A stretch of 64,000 bases of DNA, from positions 68,582 to 132,581 of the forward strand of contig CAVVUS010000038.1 of assembly GCA_963751345.1 (NCBI GenBank). Reading direction: 5' to 3'. Below are positions 23,687 through 34,209 of this stretch, piece after piece. The translations under genes were made by a program, and so were the position numbers. Numbering within the stretch: position 1 is the stretch's first letter; the number at the start of each line of letters is the position of its first letter. The notes under the pieces were generated by a model, which had not been told where the DNA came from, ran no database searches, and saw only the letters and a list, made by a program, of their open reading frames with translations. The DNA comes from an uncultured Chloroflexia bacterium (lineage in GTDB: Bacteria; Chloroflexota; Anaerolineae; B4-G1; SLSP01).

Positions 23687-25246
<1,560 letters not shown>

Positions 25247-25248
25247 AC

Positions 25249-25662
25249 ATGGCGGTGCCCGGAACGCTCCATCTGACGGTCCTGACGCCCGAACAGCTGG
25301 TGCTTCACGTCGACGCAGCACAGAAGGTACGGCTCAAGCTGGTGGATCAGGCGTGGCTCAGTATCTATCCGTACCACGAGTCACTGGTTGCCGAGATCCT
25401 GCCCGGTCCGCTGCAGTACGATACAGAGATTGAGACCGGCGAGATCATGGTAGGCTCGGGCATTCTCCAGGTGGATGGCGACGAAGTCGTCGTCCTCACC
25501 AGCGGGCTGCAGCATGATGGACCGCCCTTCTGCGACGGGCGACCTGGAGGGTGAGCGATCTCCGGTTCGACCGGTTGGCAGAGCAACTGACGGCTGACCT
25601 CAACGCTCGCGCCGACCGTCCGCCAAATCGGAGCAGTGAGGAGAGGCACCGAGCCCAGATGA
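25249..25662 (+). CDS. atpC: F1 epsilon subunit, divergent; 3' part frameshifted and end uncertain
   Basis: LHLTVLTPE...IYPYH...GILQVDGDEVVVLT; a helical tail DLRFDRLAEQL continues in another frame after ~25530; position after atpD. Confidence 0.7.
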
Positions 25663-25943
25663 TCATCACTGCGGGCGTCGTTCCTTGGTTCGTCTTTGGT
25701 GTTGTTCTCAGCATTGTCCATGGGTTCCGGATCGCTCGGGCCGTAGGGCGAATTTCGCCAGATAGGTCGTCTGGTGTCCGGATGGGGGTTTTTGCCGGGT
25801 ATCTGATGCGGTATCTGACTGTCGTGGTGGCTATGACGCTGGCTGTACAGCAGAGCGCCGCAGCCTGCGTTTCGGTCTCGTTGGGTATGGTGGTGGGGCG
25901 CTGGTTTACGGTCTATCGGAGAGTATCGGGCACGGCCGGCTGA
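25659..25943 (+). CDS. AtpR/AtpI-like small membrane subunit
   Basis: RBS GAGGAGAGG; three hydrophobic segments with in-membrane Arg (YLMRY, VVGRW) as in N-ATPase AtpR; lies before atpB. Confidence 0.65.
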   Translation: MIITAGVVPWFVFGVVLSIVHGFRIARAVGRISPDRSSGVRMGVFAGYLMRYLTVVVAMTLAVQQSAAACVSVSLGMVVGRWFTVYRRVSGTAG

Positions 25944-26660: not shown

Positions 26661-26942
26661 ATGGCACAGTTGGATCCGGGTACATTGATCACCATCGTGA
26701 CGATTCTGACCGCGGGTGTCGGCATGGTCCTTGGCGCGATCCTGCCCGCCGTGGTCGAGGGGCGGGCCGTGCTCAGGGCCCTGGATGGGATGGTGCGTCA
26801 ACCTGAGGTGGCAAATGATCTCCGAAACACATTGATCGTGTCGATGGCCCTCCTGGAGACCACCGCCATCTATGTGCTGCTGGTGGTCCTCATCCTACTC
26901 TTCGCGAATCCTCTTCTCGACCGCTTCTTTCCGACGGGGTGA
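26661..26942 (+). CDS. atpE: Fo c subunit with Na+-binding signature
   Basis: PAVVEG in helix 1, RQPE loop, ETTAIY in helix 2, LLFANP. Confidence 0.95.
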   Translation: MAQLDPGTLITIVTILTAGVGMVLGAILPAVVEGRAVLRALDGMVRQPEVANDLRNTLIVSMALLETTAIYVLLVVLILLFANPLLDRFFPTG

Positions 26943-26964: not shown

Positions 26965-27750
26965 ATGATGCTTCAGTTGGATCTTGCGACTATTCTGTGG
27001 CAGGTAGTCAATTTCCTCATTCTCTTTGTGGCATTGTACTTCCTCCTGTTCAAGCCCGTGATGGCAGCGATCAGGAAGCGCGAGGATCTGCGACAACAAC
27101 AGGCGCGCAAGCTGGAGGAGGACCGCACTGCGGCTGCTGCGCTGCGTTCCGAGTTGGAGTCACGGCTGTCATCGGCAGAGGAAGAGGCTGAAGTGATCAT
27201 CAGCCGTGCCAAGGATCAGGCTGAGGTGGAGCGGGGAACCCTGGTTGAGGAGGCGCGGGCTGAGGTTGAGCGCATCCTGACGGAGGCTCACGCGGACGCC
27301 TACCGCCTGAAGCGGCAGTCGGTTGATGAGTTTCACGATGAGCTGCTGTCCGCCGTGCTGGACGTCAGCGGTCTGGTGATCGGCAAGGTAGCGCCCGATG
27401 GCCTCCATACCTCGCTGGTCGACCAGCTCTGCAACAGTGTGTGGGAGATGGGTCAGAGCGATATGCGGCGCGTTGAGGCCCTGCGTCAGTCACTTGGCGA
27501 TCGGTCGCCCACGTTAGTCGCTCGGACCGCCAGGACGCTGTCGCCCGAGCAGCAGGGGCTCATCGTGCGGACGTTCTCCGCGCTGGCCGATCGAAGCGTG
27601 AATATCGATCTGAGGGTGGAGCCCTCCCTGGGGCTGGGATTGCAGGTGCGCCTGGGCGATCTGGTCATGGATAATACCATCGCCGGGCGCCTGGACGAGC
27701 TGCGTGAAAGTGTCGTGGATGCCCTAGCAGAGCGCATCTCGAATGAGTGA
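26965..27750 (+). CDS. atpF: Fo b subunit fused to a delta-like C-terminal domain
   Basis: WQVVNFLILF..LY.LLFKP, coiled coil, C-terminal TARTLSPEQ...VEPSLGLGLQVRLGDLVMD. Confidence 0.9.
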   Translation: MMLQLDLATILWQVVNFLILFVALYFLLFKPVMAAIRKREDLRQQQARKLEEDRTAAAALRSELESRLSSAEEEAEVIISRAKDQAEVERGTLVEEARAEVERILTEAHADAYRLKRQSVDEFHDELLSAVLDVSGLVIGKVAPDGLHTSLVDQLCNSVWEMGQSDMRRVEALRQSLGDRSPTLVARTARTLSPEQQGLIVRTFSALADRSVNIDLRVEPSLGLGLQVRLGDLVMDNTIAGRLDELRESVVDALAERISNE

Positions 27751-29468
27751 GAAGCAGCAGGTCGGCCCTGACGTTCCCGGTCTTCTGCGGCGCCTGCGCG
27801 AGGGCGCGCAGCAGGGCACGGGCCCCGGGCCGATCTCCATCCACCGGGAAGGCAGCGTCGGGATCGTCCACCAGATCAGTTCGGAAGTGTCGGCCCTGAC
27901 GGGGGGTCGGAGCCTGCAGCCGAGGGTGGGTGACCTGTTCGCCGAGCTTACCCAACGTGTCGGGACGATCACGCCGGATGTGCGGTTCCGTGAGGTGGGT
28001 ACCGTCCAGCATGTGGGGAGTGGCGTGGTCACGCTGTCGGGTCTGCCACAGTCGAAGACCAATGAGCTCGTTACCTTCACGACCGGTGTTCAGGGGCTGG
28101 TGCTGAACCTGGAGCGTACATCCGTGGACGTGATTCTCCTGGGACCCGGTGAGGGGATCCAGGGAGGGGACCTCGTCACCGCAACCGGTGCGCGCCTGCG
28201 CATCCCGGTGGGTCACAGCGTGCTTGGCCGGGTGATTGATCCACTCGCCAACCCTCTTGACGACCGCGGTTCCATCGAAATGACAGAGGCTCGGCCAATG
28301 GAGCGGGAGGCGCCACGTATCGTCGATCGCGTTCCGGTCAATGATCCGCTTCTGACAGGGTGGAAAATGGTGGATGCCCTGGTGCCGATCGGCCGGGGAC
28401 AGCGGGAACTCATCCTTGGCGATCGCCAGACGGGCAAGACCACCCTGGTCGTCGATACCATCCTCAACCAGTTGGGCCAGGTGCTCCAGAAGGGAAGCAG
28501 CGCCCAGAGAGGCGGCGTTATCTGCTTCTACGTCGCCATCGGTCAGAAGAAGTCCTCCACACTGGCTGTCATCGAAACGCTCCGCGCGCACGATGCGATG
28601 TCATACACGACCGTCGTGGTCGCCAGTGCTGACGATCCCCCGGCTCTGCGGTATCTGGCGCCCTATGCGGCCTGCACGATGGCGGAGTTCTTTATGTTGG
28701 AGGGGCGTGACGTCCTCATCATCTTCGACGATCTGACAAAGCATGCCGAGGCCTATCGTGAGCTTAGCCTGCTGTTGCGGCGACCGCCGGGCCGCGAGGC
28801 GTACCCAGGTGATGTCTTTTACCTGCACTCGCGGCTGCTGGAGCGAGCAGCCAGACTTAGCCCGGATCTGGGCGGCGGCTCGTTGACTGCCCTGCCTATC
28901 GCCGAGACGCAACAGGGCAACCTGGCGTCGTACATACCGACCAACCTGATCTCGATCACCGATGGGCAGATCATCCTGGATACCGATCTCTTCAATCAGG
29001 GCGTCAAGCCGGCGATCGATGCGGGACGTTCGGTGTCGCGAGTGGGGAGTGCAGCACAGGCCACCGGCGATGCGCACGTTCGCCTCAAACCTGCGCCTGG
29101 AACTGGCCCAGTACGAGGACGTGAGGCGATTTGCCCGCTTCGGCACGGACGTGGACGAAGCCACGCGCCAACAGATTCGGCGGGGCGAGCGGTGGCAACG
29201 CTTACTTACCCAGCCACCCCGCCAGCCGTTGTCGTTGGGCGAGGAGCTGCTGATGCTGAAGGCGGCGAGTGAGGGCTATCTCGACGACATACCCACGCAG
29301 GATATCCACGCCTTCGAGCGGGCCTTCCTCGGCCACTTCCGTGCGGTCCATCCGACATCGATCTCCCAGCTTGATCGGACGGGTCTTGAGGACGACGAGT
29401 TCACTACAACTTTTACGGAAGCCATCAGGGCGTTCCGGGCGACGTGGATCAGGGGGGAGGAACAATGA
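27743..29468 (+). CDS. atpA: F1 alpha subunit with N-terminal extension, frameshift near 29065
   Basis: GRGQRELILGDRQTGKT, DDLTKHA, RPPGREAYPGDVFYLHSRLLER, ISITDGQI, SVSRVG; C-terminus in ORF 28962..29468 (LELAQYED..FARFG). Confidence 0.93.
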
Positions 29469-29798
29469 CCAGTAAGATGGTGATGGCCGTGGTGGCGCGT
29501 GACCAGGCGGATCGCGTGCTGGACAAGTTGATCTCGGCTGGCTATGGGGCGACCTTCACGGAGAGCCGCGGCGGCATGCTACGACAGGCTCAGAAGATGC
29601 TGTTTATCGCTGTCGACGCCGATAAGGTCGACGATGTCCTGGACATCATCCGCAGGATGTGCCGGACAAGAGTCGAGGTGAGCGAACAGCGAGGGCCTGC
29701 CGAGCATCTTCGGTCCGCTGGCACCTGCAACTTCGACGACCGAGGTCGGCTACGCCGTCGCCTTTGTCTGGGATCTGGACCGGTTTGAGGCATATTGA
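29465..29798 (+). CDS. PII-like cyclic-di-AMP receptor homolog (DarA/PstA/YaaQ, DUF970), frameshift near 29710
   Basis: KMVMAVVARDQADRVLDKL...ATFTESRGGMLR...LFIAVDADKVDDVLDIIRRMCRTR, then in the shifted frame EVGYAVAFVWDLDRFEAY*; same pattern as DarA KLIVAVVQ..TGGFL..EVGGATVFV. Confidence 0.8.
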
Positions 29799-29846: not shown

Positions 29847-30812
29847 ATGAGCTACGAGCTGGAGAAGGCCACGAGTCGTCTCGACAACATCCGCAGGGTC
29901 AAGCCGATCCTCGCGGCTCTTCGCACCATTTCGTTGGGGAGTTGGCAGATGGCGCGCAACCGGCGCGCCGGGCTTGGGCCCTACACGGAGCGACTCTTAC
30001 GTCTGCTGGCGATTGTTGTCCCTCACGTCGGTCAGCGGCAGGTCGGCTATCGGTTGGGCGGGGCGGCGACACGCCGACAGCACGCTGGGGGCCGCCAGAA
30101 TCCACAGGAGGGCCAGACTGTCGTCGTGGTCATTGGCAGCGAGCGCGGCCTGTGTGGTCGATACAATAAGGTCCTGCTCGAGCGCCTGGAGACTTACCTT
30201 GCCGACATGCGCGCAGAGATGCCCGCGGGCAGGCCTACTGAGCTGATGGCGATGGGAACGCGGATGGCCCGCGAGATGGACCTGGGCGGCTACGACGTGG
30301 CGCGAACGAAGGCGCTTTCGGTCACCGCGCTACCTTCGTTTGACCTGGCGTTCGGGCTTGTCGCCGAATGGCTGCAGCGCTATGAGGCATACGAATTGGA
30401 TGCAGTGGACGTGCTCTATAACGCTGACCAGGGGGCCGGTAGCTACGGCGCGACCGTCACGCGACTGATACCGCCTGAGCTTCCCGTGGTCTCCCCCCGG
30501 GAAACGCCGACCGACCAGCTCGGGTTCCCGCGTCGCCCTGTGCCTGACGCGGAGATTCCCGTGGCGACCGATCCCGTCCGGCTGTACGTTCGCATCGTGG
30601 AACAATGGACGGCGACGGCAGCATATCGCTTGCTCCTCGAGAGCGCGGTGACCGAGCATTCGACCCGGTACCAGTTGATGGAGGCCGCGACGCAGAATGC
30701 GGACGACCTTGTTAACGACTTGATGTTGGCAGTCCAGTCTGCACGGCGCCAGGCGATCACGCGTGAGATGCAGGAACTGGCTGTGGGTGCAGGTCTGCTC
30801 AGGCACGATTAG
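29847..30812 (+). CDS. atpG: F1 gamma subunit
   Basis: IGSERGLCGRYN, EHSTRYQLMEAATQNA, RRQAITREMQEL. Confidence 0.92.
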   Translation: MSYELEKATSRLDNIRRVKPILAALRTISLGSWQMARNRRAGLGPYTERLLRLLAIVVPHVGQRQVGYRLGGAATRRQHAGGRQNPQEGQTVVVVIGSERGLCGRYNKVLLERLETYLADMRAEMPAGRPTELMAMGTRMAREMDLGGYDVARTKALSVTALPSFDLAFGLVAEWLQRYEAYELDAVDVLYNADQGAGSYGATVTRLIPPELPVVSPRETPTDQLGFPRRPVPDAEIPVATDPVRLYVRIVEQWTATAAYRLLLESAVTEHSTRYQLMEAATQNADDLVNDLMLAVQSARRQAITREMQELAVGAGLLRHD

Positions 30813-30833: not shown

Positions 30834-31332
30834 GTGAGACAGCTTTGGGCGCCTTGGCGAATGCCCTATCTACGTGGCAGTGATGGCGACAGCGAGGGGT
30901 GCATATTCTGCAACAAGGTCACCTCTAATGACGCGGCTGAGCACGTGCTCTATCGCGGGCGAACGTGTTTTGTGGTCCTGAACCGCTATCCGTACAGTAA
31001 TGGGCATATGATGATCGTGCCCTATGCGCACGTGAGCTCGTTGACCCAACTCGATGACGCTGTCCTGCTTGAGATGTTGCAGTTGGCGAGAGAGGCCCAG
31101 CGTGTGCTCCTGGAGTCCGCCGGCCCGCAAGGGTTCAACGTGGGCATCAACGAGGGGAGTGCTGCCGGGGCTGGCATCGAGGAACATCATCCACATGCAC
31201 ATCGTGCCTCGATGGGAGGGCGATGCGAACTATATGACCGTGATCGGCGGAACGCGCGTCATCCCCCAGATGCTTGACGAAACGTATGCTGAGCTGCGAC
31301 CGCTCTTCGATCGGCTGCCCAAGGAGGCCTGA
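30834..31332 (+). CDS. HIT-family hydrolase (Fhit/Ap4A phosphorylase-like), frameshift near 31190
   Basis: LWAPWR.PY, CIFC, LNRYPYSNGH, GFNVGIN.G..AGAGI, H.HMHIVPRW.GD.N. Confidence 0.88.
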
Positions 31333-33212: not shown

Positions 33213-34209
33213 CCTGCACTCGCCTTCGTTACGGGGACCGCGACCATGCGCACCAACTCTGCGACTACATCGTCGGCGGCCGCCTTGTCGGTCCACATGT
33301 CGGGCTCGAGAATGAGCCGGTGGGTGAGCGAAGCGTGTGCGAACAGCTTGACGTCATCGGGTAGGACGAAGTCGCGCCCACTCATAGCCGCCCACGACCT
33401 AGCAAGCTTCAGCAACGCGAGCCCGCCTCGCGGGCTCGCCCCAACCGCCACGTGGCGGTGCCGCCGCGTGGCTCTCGCCAGCTCGACCATGTAGCGCTCG
33501 ACGTCTGTATCCACGTGAACCCGCTCGGCAACCCGTCGCATCGCCAGCACGCCCTGCCGCATCGGTCACCGCGCTGAGCTGGAACTCGTCCTGACGACGT
33601 TCGCGCCGGCGGCGAAGAATCTCCTGTTCCTCGTCTGCTGACGGATAGCCGATCGAGAGCTTCATCATAAAGCGATCGAGCTGTGCCTCGGGCAGTGGAA
33701 ACGTACCTTCGTACTCGATGGGGTTCTGTGTAGCGATCACGATAAAGGGGTCGGGCAGTGGCTGTGTCTCGCCCTCCAGCGTCACCTGGTACTCCTGCAT
33801 TGCCTCCAGGAGCGCGGATTGCGTCTTCGGGCGAAGCCCGGTTGATCTCGTCCGCCAGGATGATGTTGGCGAAGAGCGGCCCACGGCGAAGCTCGAAGTT
33901 GCCTCCCAGCCGGTCGTAGACATAGCCACCGGTGATATCACCCGGCAGTAGGTCGGGCGTGAATTGGATCCGCTTGAAGCTCAGCCCCAGGACCTCGGCA
34001 AAGCTGTTGGCGATCAGCGTCTTGGCGAGGCCCGGGTAGTCCTCCAACAGGACGTGGCCACCCGAGGAGAGACACGCCGCCAGGATCATTCGGAGTACGT
34101 CCGTCTTGCCTACGATCGCACGTTCCACCTCGTCAACGATCTGTTGGGTGATGATGGCGACATCGTTGACCGAGAGTTCGTTGTAGTCCGAGGGTGCATT
34201 ACTGCTCAC
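33209..34209 (-). CDS. moxR: Second MoxR-family AAA+ ATPase, frameshifts near 33830 and 33560
   Basis: [27 protein letters not shown] / [31 protein letters not shown] / GASPRG, FVLPDD. Confidence 0.9.

Follow-up and report, generated by a model that had tools for sequence, protein, structure and literature searches.

A stretch of 64,000 nucleotides (nt) from an uncultured Chloroflexia bacterium (class Anaerolineae in GTDB; assembly GCA_963751345.1, contig CAVVUS010000038.1, forward-strand positions 68,582 to 132,581) is referred to here as the window. Its + strand carries a nine-gene ATPase operon in the order atpD-C-R-B-E-F-A-[PII]-G, in which a gene for a small PII-like protein lies between the genes of the alpha and gamma subunits. 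By sequence, the product of this gene belongs to the DarA/PstA family (Pfam PF06153), whose characterised members are receptors for cyclic di-AMP (c-di-AMP). The gene and its orthologues in related genomes are called clade T1. The window genome's relatives, their loci and their contigs carry handles in which G stands for a genome, L for a locus and C for a contig; G000 is the window genome itself. The operon and the gene that follows it are made up as follows.

23720..25246, + strand: atpD (beta), the first operon gene; Pfam ATP-synt_ab; true start probably downstream of the TTG at 23720
25249..25658, + strand: atpC (epsilon); Pfam ATP-synt_DE_N on 25249-25551; probably frameshifted near 25540
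25659..25943, + strand: atpR-like; small membrane protein whose three hydrophobic segments contain Arg; PF12966 AtpR 16.4 bits
25978..26616, + strand: atpB (a subunit); Pfam ATP-synt_A, E 1.1e-37
26661..26942, + strand: atpE (c subunit); Pfam ATP-synt_C; Glu in helix 1 (VVEGR), ETTAIY in helix 2
26965..27750, + strand: atpF (b subunit, delta/OSCP-like towards the C-terminus); Pfam ATP-synt_B, and positions 107-171 of OSCP
27743..29468, + strand: atpA (alpha); in two frames (extra base near 29061); N-terminal extension of ~60 amino acids (aa); stop overlaps the next start
29465..29798, + strand: DarA/PstA-family PII-like gene (T1 clade); extra base near 29705; intact form 333 nt, 110 codons with stop
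29847..30812, + strand: atpG (gamma); Pfam ATP-synt, E 1.4e-39; orthologues directly after the PII-like gene
30834..31332, + strand: HIT-family gene, ATP adenylyltransferase-like (Ap4A phosphorylase type); Pfam HIT; probably frameshifted

The ATG of the PII-like gene (29465-29467) overlaps the TGA stop of atpA (29466-29468) as ATGA and is preceded by a strong Shine-Dalgarno-like run, GGGGGAGG. Its own TGA is at 29796-29798, and the ATG of atpG follows 48 nt further on, at 29847. Both junctions are as described in the original prediction, which had been made from the window's letters alone. That prediction also treated 29465-29798 as one open reading frame (ORF), and here it had read through a frameshift: the interval is 334 nt long, which is not divisible by three, so no open frame crosses it. 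Frame 1 from 29465 stops at 29786-29788 and its end is unrelated sequence; the first 78 codons lie in the frame of 29465 and the conserved C-terminus, TTEVGYAVAFVWDLDRFEAY, lies in the +1 frame. In G002, the closest relative, the N-terminal part shows 94% identity, the variable loop region is one base shorter, and the frame stays open for 110 codons. One base at 29705 is missing from two public soil-metagenome contigs of a single study, which measure 328 nt and 151 nt and share ~97% identity with the window, and its absence restores the 333-nt, 110-codon frame.

Frame splits of this kind affect several other genes of the assembly: atpA, for which a public contig leaves out one base at 29061; a MoxR-type AAA_3 ATPase gene at 33399-34209 of the window; the V-type A subunit gene on contig C1, which is in three frame pieces (L085, G000:C1 7581-9363); and probably atpC and the HIT gene. 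The two overlapping ORFs of atpA divide its Pfam domains between them, and the gene is a single frame in relatives except G002. For atpC, the C-terminal helix LRFDRLAEQL is found in the frame of the next ORF, and the same motif is within the epsilon ORF in relative L026; the gene is thus probably frameshifted in this assembly. G002 shows frame splitting of its own, in atpA and atpG. The number of split genes suggests frequent single-base indel errors in the window assembly, and the break in the PII-like gene is most likely one of them, since other genes are split likewise; a very recent lesion in this strain is conceivable. That the gene is a pseudogene here, its frameshift real and its function lost, is the reading suggested by a broken frame next to an equally broken atpA, and we consider it highly improbable. 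The part beyond the break is still conserved (84% identity to G002 over 31 residues), the near-identical public contigs are without the extra base, indel errors would frameshift unrelated genes as is seen, and the orthologue is intact in all 19 loci fetched from relatives (106-119 aa). The gene was therefore treated as encoding a protein of 110 aa, and intact orthologues were used for every analysis.

The 78 N-terminal codons of the window gene match PF06153 (CdAMP_rec) with an E-value of 1.1e-12 and 48.5 bits (cut-off 27), and intact T1 orthologues score 54.6-68.1 bits over profile positions 1-108. This match is far beyond chance, because the orthologues match the profile at full length and the synteny is conserved across a bacterial class. 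The curated NCBIfam model for the cyclic di-AMP receptor DarA (NF058593) gives orthologue L007 59 bits, below its cut-off of 140, and the classical PII family (PF00543) gives 21.5 bits, below its cut-off of 25. When T1 was compared with the sequences of the PDB by phmmer, the closest solved proteins were PstA of Staphylococcus aureus (4d3g/4wk1, E 2.4e-10), PstA of Listeria monocytogenes (Lmo2692, 3.4e-9), PEPE_1480 and DarA of Bacillus subtilis (4rle, 5.7e-5). An AlphaFold2 model built from 52 homologues (predicted local distance difference test, pLDDT, 79.8; predicted template modelling score, pTM, 0.68; weak only in two loops) has the double beta-alpha-beta fold of PII-like proteins. Its top Foldseek matches are the PstA/DarA structures 4rww, 4d3h (TMq 0.74), 3m05, 4rle and 4wk1, and classical PII proteins form a second tier (GlnK1, 2j9d; the PII-NrtBCD complex, 8wm7). 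The DarA/PstA-like identity first proposed from the letters alone was thus upheld by the PF06153 profile, by the solved structures and by the predicted fold.

T1 proteins share with B. subtilis DarA (YaaQ) and with PstA of S. aureus and L. monocytogenes their Pfam family and their predicted fold, and have their best PDB matches among these proteins; as in PstA, a long loop of variable sequence separates R67 from the GGA motif. They differ in the setting of the gene, which is inside a rotary ATPase operon whereas DarA and PstA genes stand alone, in falling under the DarA equivalog cut-off, and in contact residues that are altered throughout the clade. With the classical PII proteins of the GlnK-AmtB, PII-NrtBCD and SbtB-SbtA pairs T1 would share a trimeric ferredoxin-like fold, and its gene adjoins that of the presumed target, just as glnK is linked to amtB. 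The PII-NrtBCD complex among the fold matches is a precedent for PII proteins that regulate transporters. T1 differs from these proteins in its PF00543 score, in its presumed partner, a rotary ATPase, for which the literature search gave no precedent, and in its loops, the T'-loop being short and the B'-loop long, an arrangement shared with PstA according to part of the PstA structure paper (PMC4316997).

The position of the gene is conserved. Of 60 relatives, which represent three GTDB families within the same order, 35 carry an orthologue (at least 45% identity), and in all 35 it lies beside an orthologous atpG, with the pair on one contig in 34 and the contig of G016 ending inside atpG. The remaining relatives have only atpG fragments at contig edges (3) or neither gene (22). 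Of the 19 loci fetched, 18 read atpA-PII-atpG and the last is cut by a contig end. A scan of species-representative genomes returned 59 loci, all in metagenome-assembled genomes labelled Chloroflexota, Anaerolineae or Thermoflexales: 54 with atpA-PII-atpG, one with atpA-PII-atpA-atpG, two cut by contig ends and two with a partial gene only; about 17 of the 59 come from the same genomes as the fetched loci. In an even sample of 401 Anaerolineae genomes T1 was found in 30, from 13 GTDB families, and was cleanly separated by score (at least 112 bits, against at most 85 for other full-length matches); a related gamma gene (E ≤ 1e-30) was found in 41 genomes of this sample, with T1 adjacent in 27. 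An even sample of 401 genomes from the whole phylum Chloroflexota held T1 in eight, seven of them Anaerolineae and one outside the class with 8% contamination, and all five new loci have the order atpA-PII-atpG. The original prediction was to fall if the insertion proved unique to this genome; it is instead widespread in the Anaerolineae.

Two T1 loci contain two copies of atpA (L066 474-3980 and L069 2277-6029), the orders in L066/L069 being atpA-atpA-PII-atpG and atpA-PII-atpA-atpG. Of 48 loci, 39 have the start of the T1 gene overlapping the stop of atpA, 32 of them by 4 nt (ATGA) and seven by 1 nt. The splitting of the atpA-atpG pair by a gene translationally coupled to atpA, first noticed in the window, is supported. 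The next gene begins no more than 11 nt after the T1 gene in 34 of 50 loci. Ratios of nonsynonymous to synonymous substitution (dN/dS, Nei-Gojobori) were 0.04-0.13 in 10 of 12 pairs, dS being unsaturated in these 10. As read from these sequences, the arrangement shows the T1 gene to be a conserved, co-translated and selected operon member that comes from a family of nucleotide receptors.

The residues with which PstA contacts c-di-AMP are, in the structural account of Campeotto et al. (PMC4316997, consulted in part), N24, R26, T28, G34-G35-F36-L37, N41, G47, F99 and Q108; the same source gives TKLxxxGGFLxxGNTT and GGA as family motifs and reports that binding is lost in the variants T28A, N41A and GGFL-to-AAAA. 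These positions were compared, in PstA numbering, in 52 T1 proteins, 25 stand-alone DarA homologues from Anaerolineae and eight proteins of a second ATPase-linked clade, T2, described below. T28, G34, G35, L37 and F99 are kept in all three groups, and the stand-alone and T2 proteins keep the canonical contact set. T1 does not have the conserved set (R26, T28, GGFL, N41, T43, G47, GGA, F99) as a whole. Position 36 is M in 39 T1 proteins, V in 11 and A in two, and never F; position 41 is Q in 47, R in three, K in one and S in one, and never N. R26 is kept in a single T1 protein and is otherwise T, G or S; T33 is replaced by an invariant Arg; T43 is M (32), T (14) or L (6); Ala predominates in place of G47; and D12 gives way to Gln or Glu. 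The middle residue of GGA is G in 25, Y in 15, S in seven, N in three and W in one.

The SRGGML and GYA motifs that had been singled out in the window are present, and the altered binding loop is systematic across the 52 proteins of the clade. The change from GGA to GYA holds for the nearest subclade and does not extend to the clade, nearly half of which has GGA. The loop ESRGGMLRQAQ is the most conserved stretch of T1, with S34, R35 and G37 invariant and G36 nearly so (T1 numbering). The pocket is therefore rebuilt yet under constraint, a pattern to be expected if the ligand or its affinity has changed, or if the loop makes a conserved contact with a protein, and one that does not fit decay.

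DarA-family genes also lie directly after atpG in two further operon lineages, T2 (eight genomes) and T3 (three genomes). The arrangements found besides T1 are listed here.

T2: atpD-C-Q-…-B-E-F-A-G and then a full-length canonical DarA homologue; G024, G027, G032, G039, G114, G130, G203, G395
T3: 95-aa PF06153 homologue directly after atpG; G130, G203, G357; operon gamma closer to the T1 type; genes at L123 8799-9083, L125 1929-2213 and L127 2354-2638
No adjacent PF06153 gene, related gamma: 9 of the 41 class-sample genomes; four loci inspected
Broken locus: G123; half a gene before atpG, no atpA

T2 proteins score 95.8 bits with PF06153 and retain R26 in six of eight, F36 in seven, N41 in all and GGA in all. 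Their operons have AtpQ and a c subunit with Gln and ESLAIY (loci L086-L089 and L091-L095). T3 proteins have the loop SGGFL and keep N41, with GGA absent; a GGFL-type loop and N41 are thus common to T2 and T3. Each clade is well supported in the trees (Shimodaira-Hasegawa-like approximate likelihood ratio test, SH-aLRT: T1 100, T2 99, T3 96; T1 97-100 over the trees made), and T2 and T3 group with stand-alone canonical DarA homologues. Independent recruitment of T1, T2 and T3 was considered on this ground and set aside, since by the approximately unbiased (AU) test a tree that unites all ATPase-linked forms in one clade is not rejected (p 0.255); the link may have arisen once or several times.

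Some individual loci depart from these arrangements. In T2 locus L089 (G024:C410, 1032-9021) a gene for a 23S-rRNA-intervening-sequence-type protein lies between atpQ and atpB, and an ACT-domain gene is upstream of atpD. In L127 a stray atpG C-terminal fragment separates atpG from the T3 gene. L126, the broken locus (G123:C390, 3196-4389), has only the C-terminal half of a T1-type gene before atpG and no atpA within 9 kb, and is either a rearrangement or a misassembly. L121, from the closed genome G206, has a second a/c subunit pair (18-1086) a few kb from an N-like operon without the PII-like gene. L090 (G048:C197, 1960-7557) has an F-type atpA-G-D-C cluster of the ordinary kind, in which a nucleotidyltransferase-like ORF separates atpG from atpD, and two tandem PF06153 genes come immediately after it; the eight other genomes of the genus have the pair and atpG on different contigs, and the adjacency may be coincidence. 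Tandem PF06153 genes, one long and one short without the B'-loop, are the housekeeping arrangement in this order (for example G000:C14 138963-139486, L001/L002). Many metagenome proteins of 210-260 aa (among P0038-P0090) have two PF06153 domains in one chain, and P0120 is an Orn/Lys/Arg decarboxylase fused to a PF06153 domain.

The window genome encodes a diadenylate cyclase, the enzyme whose presence had been proposed as a check, together with four c-di-AMP riboswitches that score 67-86 bits, above the Rfam gathering score. It has three other PF06153 genes, none beside ATPase genes.

c-di-AMP riboswitches RF00379 (L132-L135): G000:C30:395383-395529, C40:101952-102095, C12:66628-66824, C35:4669-4826

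An Rfam scan turned up four tRNAs in the window and nothing else; neither the operon nor the sequence preceding it has a riboswitch or a member of any other family. The HIT-family gene starts 21 nt after atpG, and of 49 informative T1 loci 25 have a HIT gene 10-134 nt downstream of atpG. The intact orthologue in L028 (5302-5796) has the ATP adenylyltransferase model NF052622 as its best NCBIfam match (E 2.3e-45; 154 bits against a cut-off of 290). The linkage may hint at a role for a linear di-adenine nucleotide. Since a gene resembling a phosphorylase of diadenosine tetraphosphate (Ap4A) is found in half of the loci, and since the rebuilt pocket is one for two adenines that has gained invariant arginines, Ap4A is a possible T1 ligand and a lead worth testing first.

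The operon itself is, by its sequence and by the criteria in the consulted part of Dibrova, Galperin and Mulkidjanian 2010 (PMC2881411), N-ATPase-like. There the N-ATPase operon is given the order atpDCQRBEFAG, with AtpR as its 'tell-tale' subunit; the N-ATPase is described as always a second rotary ATPase next to a typical one, and one- and two-gene insertions are mentioned for cyanobacterial N-ATPase operons. The window operon resembles this description in having beta and epsilon first and alpha and gamma last, an AtpR-like gene, and Glu in both c-subunit helices with the motif E[ST]TxxY, of the ESTxxY type of Na+ ligand set. A delta ORF is missing between atpF and atpA, as the description requires. 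In a scan of c subunits (61 matches) ESTAIY occurs in 29 and ETTAIY in 21, each with the helix-1 Glu (50 of 61). The match to PF12966 is marginal, being above the cut-off of 26 in two of six sequences (L028 26.5, L037 26.7), below it in three (L038 24.7, L034 21.1 and the window) and missing in L042. The window b subunit is most like the N-type b, alt_F1F0_F0_B being its best NCBIfam model (102.4 bits, cut-off 224.7). Another rotary ATPase is present in the window genome, in this case a V/A-type operon on contig C1; the operon described here is the only F-type operon, and an ordinary one was not found in this 93%-complete genome.

The differences from the N-ATPase are the extra PF06153 gene between atpA and atpG, the failure to detect AtpQ (PF09527) in the window's operon, and scores below the curated NCBIfam alt-F1F0 cut-offs for every ATPase subunit of the window: besides b, beta 609.7 bits (cut-off 752, alt_F1F0_F1_bet), alpha 507.2 (750.5; a fragment), a 128.8 (302.1), c 80.9 (130.85), gamma 70.3 (282.35) and epsilon 21.8 (100.1). 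The beta subunit is above the cut-off of the ordinary atpD model (715.5 bits, cut-off 462.85). The original prediction of an N-ATPase working as a rotary Na+ pump is therefore retained for the type of operon, with the reservation of these scores, and is not retained for the ion. The N-type c-ring of Burkholderia pseudomallei is reported in part of PMC5376962 to be H+-selective despite a predicted Na+ specificity, and for that reason a Na+ pump cannot be concluded; ion specificity is not readable from the sequence of the window ATPase. The same source describes the role, ion specificity and regulation of N-type ATPases as largely unexplored.

Several features of the ATPase were considered as a docking site for the PII-like protein or as a correlate of its gene, and were rejected. 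The N-terminal extension of alpha (~60 aa) is present in operons without the gene (L121, L122, L124, L131) and missing in some that have it (L062, L072, L128). Insertions in gamma are variable and have no conserved motif, the length and C-terminus of epsilon show no correlation with presence of the gene, and the c-subunit ion motif is the same in operons with and without it. The alpha extensions of these operons vary from 30 to 170 aa (for example L059, L078, L080 and L088) and resemble repeats of the canonical N-terminal helix segment (…LLxxLRE…VRFxxVGTV). P0051, a single long match that joins 53 T1 residues to a lyase-like sequence on a 1.5-kb contig, is probably a chimera.

Evolutionary rates over 39 loci (75 branches) covary between the PII-like protein and alpha (rho 0.36), b (0.29) and gamma (0.24), with lower values for c (0.11) and a (-0.14); known contacts gave 0.32-0.57 in the same test. 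This is weak evidence that groups the protein with alpha, b and gamma. The best covariation being with alpha, and translational coupling to alpha being what a 3:3 stoichiometry might call for, the T1 protein could also be a constitutive structural or assembly subunit that has lost messenger sensing, for instance a trimeric cap or an assembly factor for alpha3beta3. The loss from T1 of residues needed by PstA points the same way, F36 and N41 being never kept and R26 in only 1 of 52, if the mutagenesis in the consulted part of PMC4316997 is taken as a guide. We find this explanation improbable: the loop that closes over the ligand in PstA is the most conserved part of T1, for which a preserved small-molecule site is at least as good an account, related operons manage without the gene, and T2 and T3 retain the canonical site.

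It is also possible that the protein is a transducer merely co-expressed with the ATPase, its level tracking that of the pump, which senses a nucleotide and acts on K+ or osmolyte transporters or on a transcription factor. The sole partner reported for a family member is a transcription factor, GlnR (PMC13484208, consulted in part), and part of the review PMC10636490 discusses DarA and DarB as 'third messengers' reaching other proteins. The nine related operons without the gene, its varying position and the failure of any ATPase feature to covary with its presence would be expected on this explanation too, which we nevertheless rate as rather unlikely. Synteny at the level of a class together with start/stop overlap in 39 of 48 loci exceeds what co-expression usually needs, the same family is found beside atpG in three operon lineages, and the genomes keep separate stand-alone DarA genes for general signalling.

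Set against these alternatives, the reading that we favour is that the PII-like protein is an accessory nucleotide-sensing regulator of an N-ATPase-like rotary ATPase, although on the sequence evidence we would put the chance of its being right at only about even. Trimer formation, binding to the ATPase, the direction of regulation and the ligand are all inferred. A number of observations weigh against the reading. In nine of the 41 class-sample genomes that carry a related gamma no PF06153 gene adjoins it, and in the four such loci inspected atpA runs directly into atpG. The gene is dispensable for this ATPase clade and, given these sister operons, is an add-on rather than a core subunit. Its position varies, before atpG, after atpG, or with a duplicated atpA (L066, L069). 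None of the ATPase features examined (alpha extension, epsilon length, c motif) tracks its presence. Fusions to an ATPase subunit were looked for in the 150 best representatives and by a search of longer proteins, and none came up. The covariation signal could simply reflect the division between soluble and membrane proteins. Conservation in T1 is poor for the variable B'-loop, the effector-binding element of PstA as proposed by Campeotto et al. (PMC4316997, in the part consulted). The first PstA target to be reported, GlnR, in a weak interaction described in the consulted part of a 2026 preprint (PMC13484208), is a transcription factor and not a transporter.

If the protein does regulate the ATPase, it would be made together with alpha and would most probably assemble as a trimer, and the trimer would bind the soluble F1 or stalk part of the enzyme, where the bound adenine nucleotide would switch pumping on or off. 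In T2 and T3, with their genes after atpG and their canonical loop, the nucleotide would probably be c-di-AMP, and this would tie an ion-pumping ATPase to the K+ and osmotic signalling network. In T1, the clade of the window, the ligand may be bound with altered affinity or may be another adenine nucleotide. The fullest form of this idea, a rotary ATPase with a built-in di-adenine-nucleotide switch in which a DarA-type trimer docks on the F1 or stalk and responds to c-di-AMP in T2 and T3 and possibly to Ap4A in T1, is offered tentatively, as something we consider possible and on balance doubtful.

Protein inhibitors are well known among the F-type ATPases and include the C-terminal domain of epsilon, mitochondrial IF1, the alphaproteobacterial zeta subunit and cyanobacterial AtpTheta. 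T1 resembles them in being a small soluble protein that may tune a rotary ATPase to the state of the cell. To our knowledge none of them has a PII fold, is trimeric or reads a second messenger. In a full-text literature search no publication came up that connects N-ATPase or ATP synthase operons with DarA/PstA, PF06153 or PII-like proteins, in line with the original prediction, which knew of no described ATPase with such a subunit; nor is such a gene mentioned in the consulted parts of Koumandou and Kossida 2014 (PMC4154653) and Dibrova et al. 2010 (PMC2881411), the latter taken without its supplementary operon figures. What is new is an N-type ATPase operon with a gene of a receptor family, and a clade of the DarA family with a new genomic partner and a rebuilt pocket.

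The partner of DarA has not been identified 'despite extensive efforts' in three model species, as stated in the consulted part of a 2023 review (PMC10636490). A coupled link that extends across a class gives these orphan DarA/PstA receptors, and the poorly understood N-type ATPases, a concrete and testable hypothesis, and the three arrangements of the receptor gene together with sister operons without it provide natural controls. If true, this would be the first nucleotide-receptor subunit of any F- or N-type ATPase and a direct target for the long-orphan DarA/PstA family, and signalling by c-di-AMP or another di-adenine nucleotide would extend from K+ and osmolyte transporters to a primary rotary pump.

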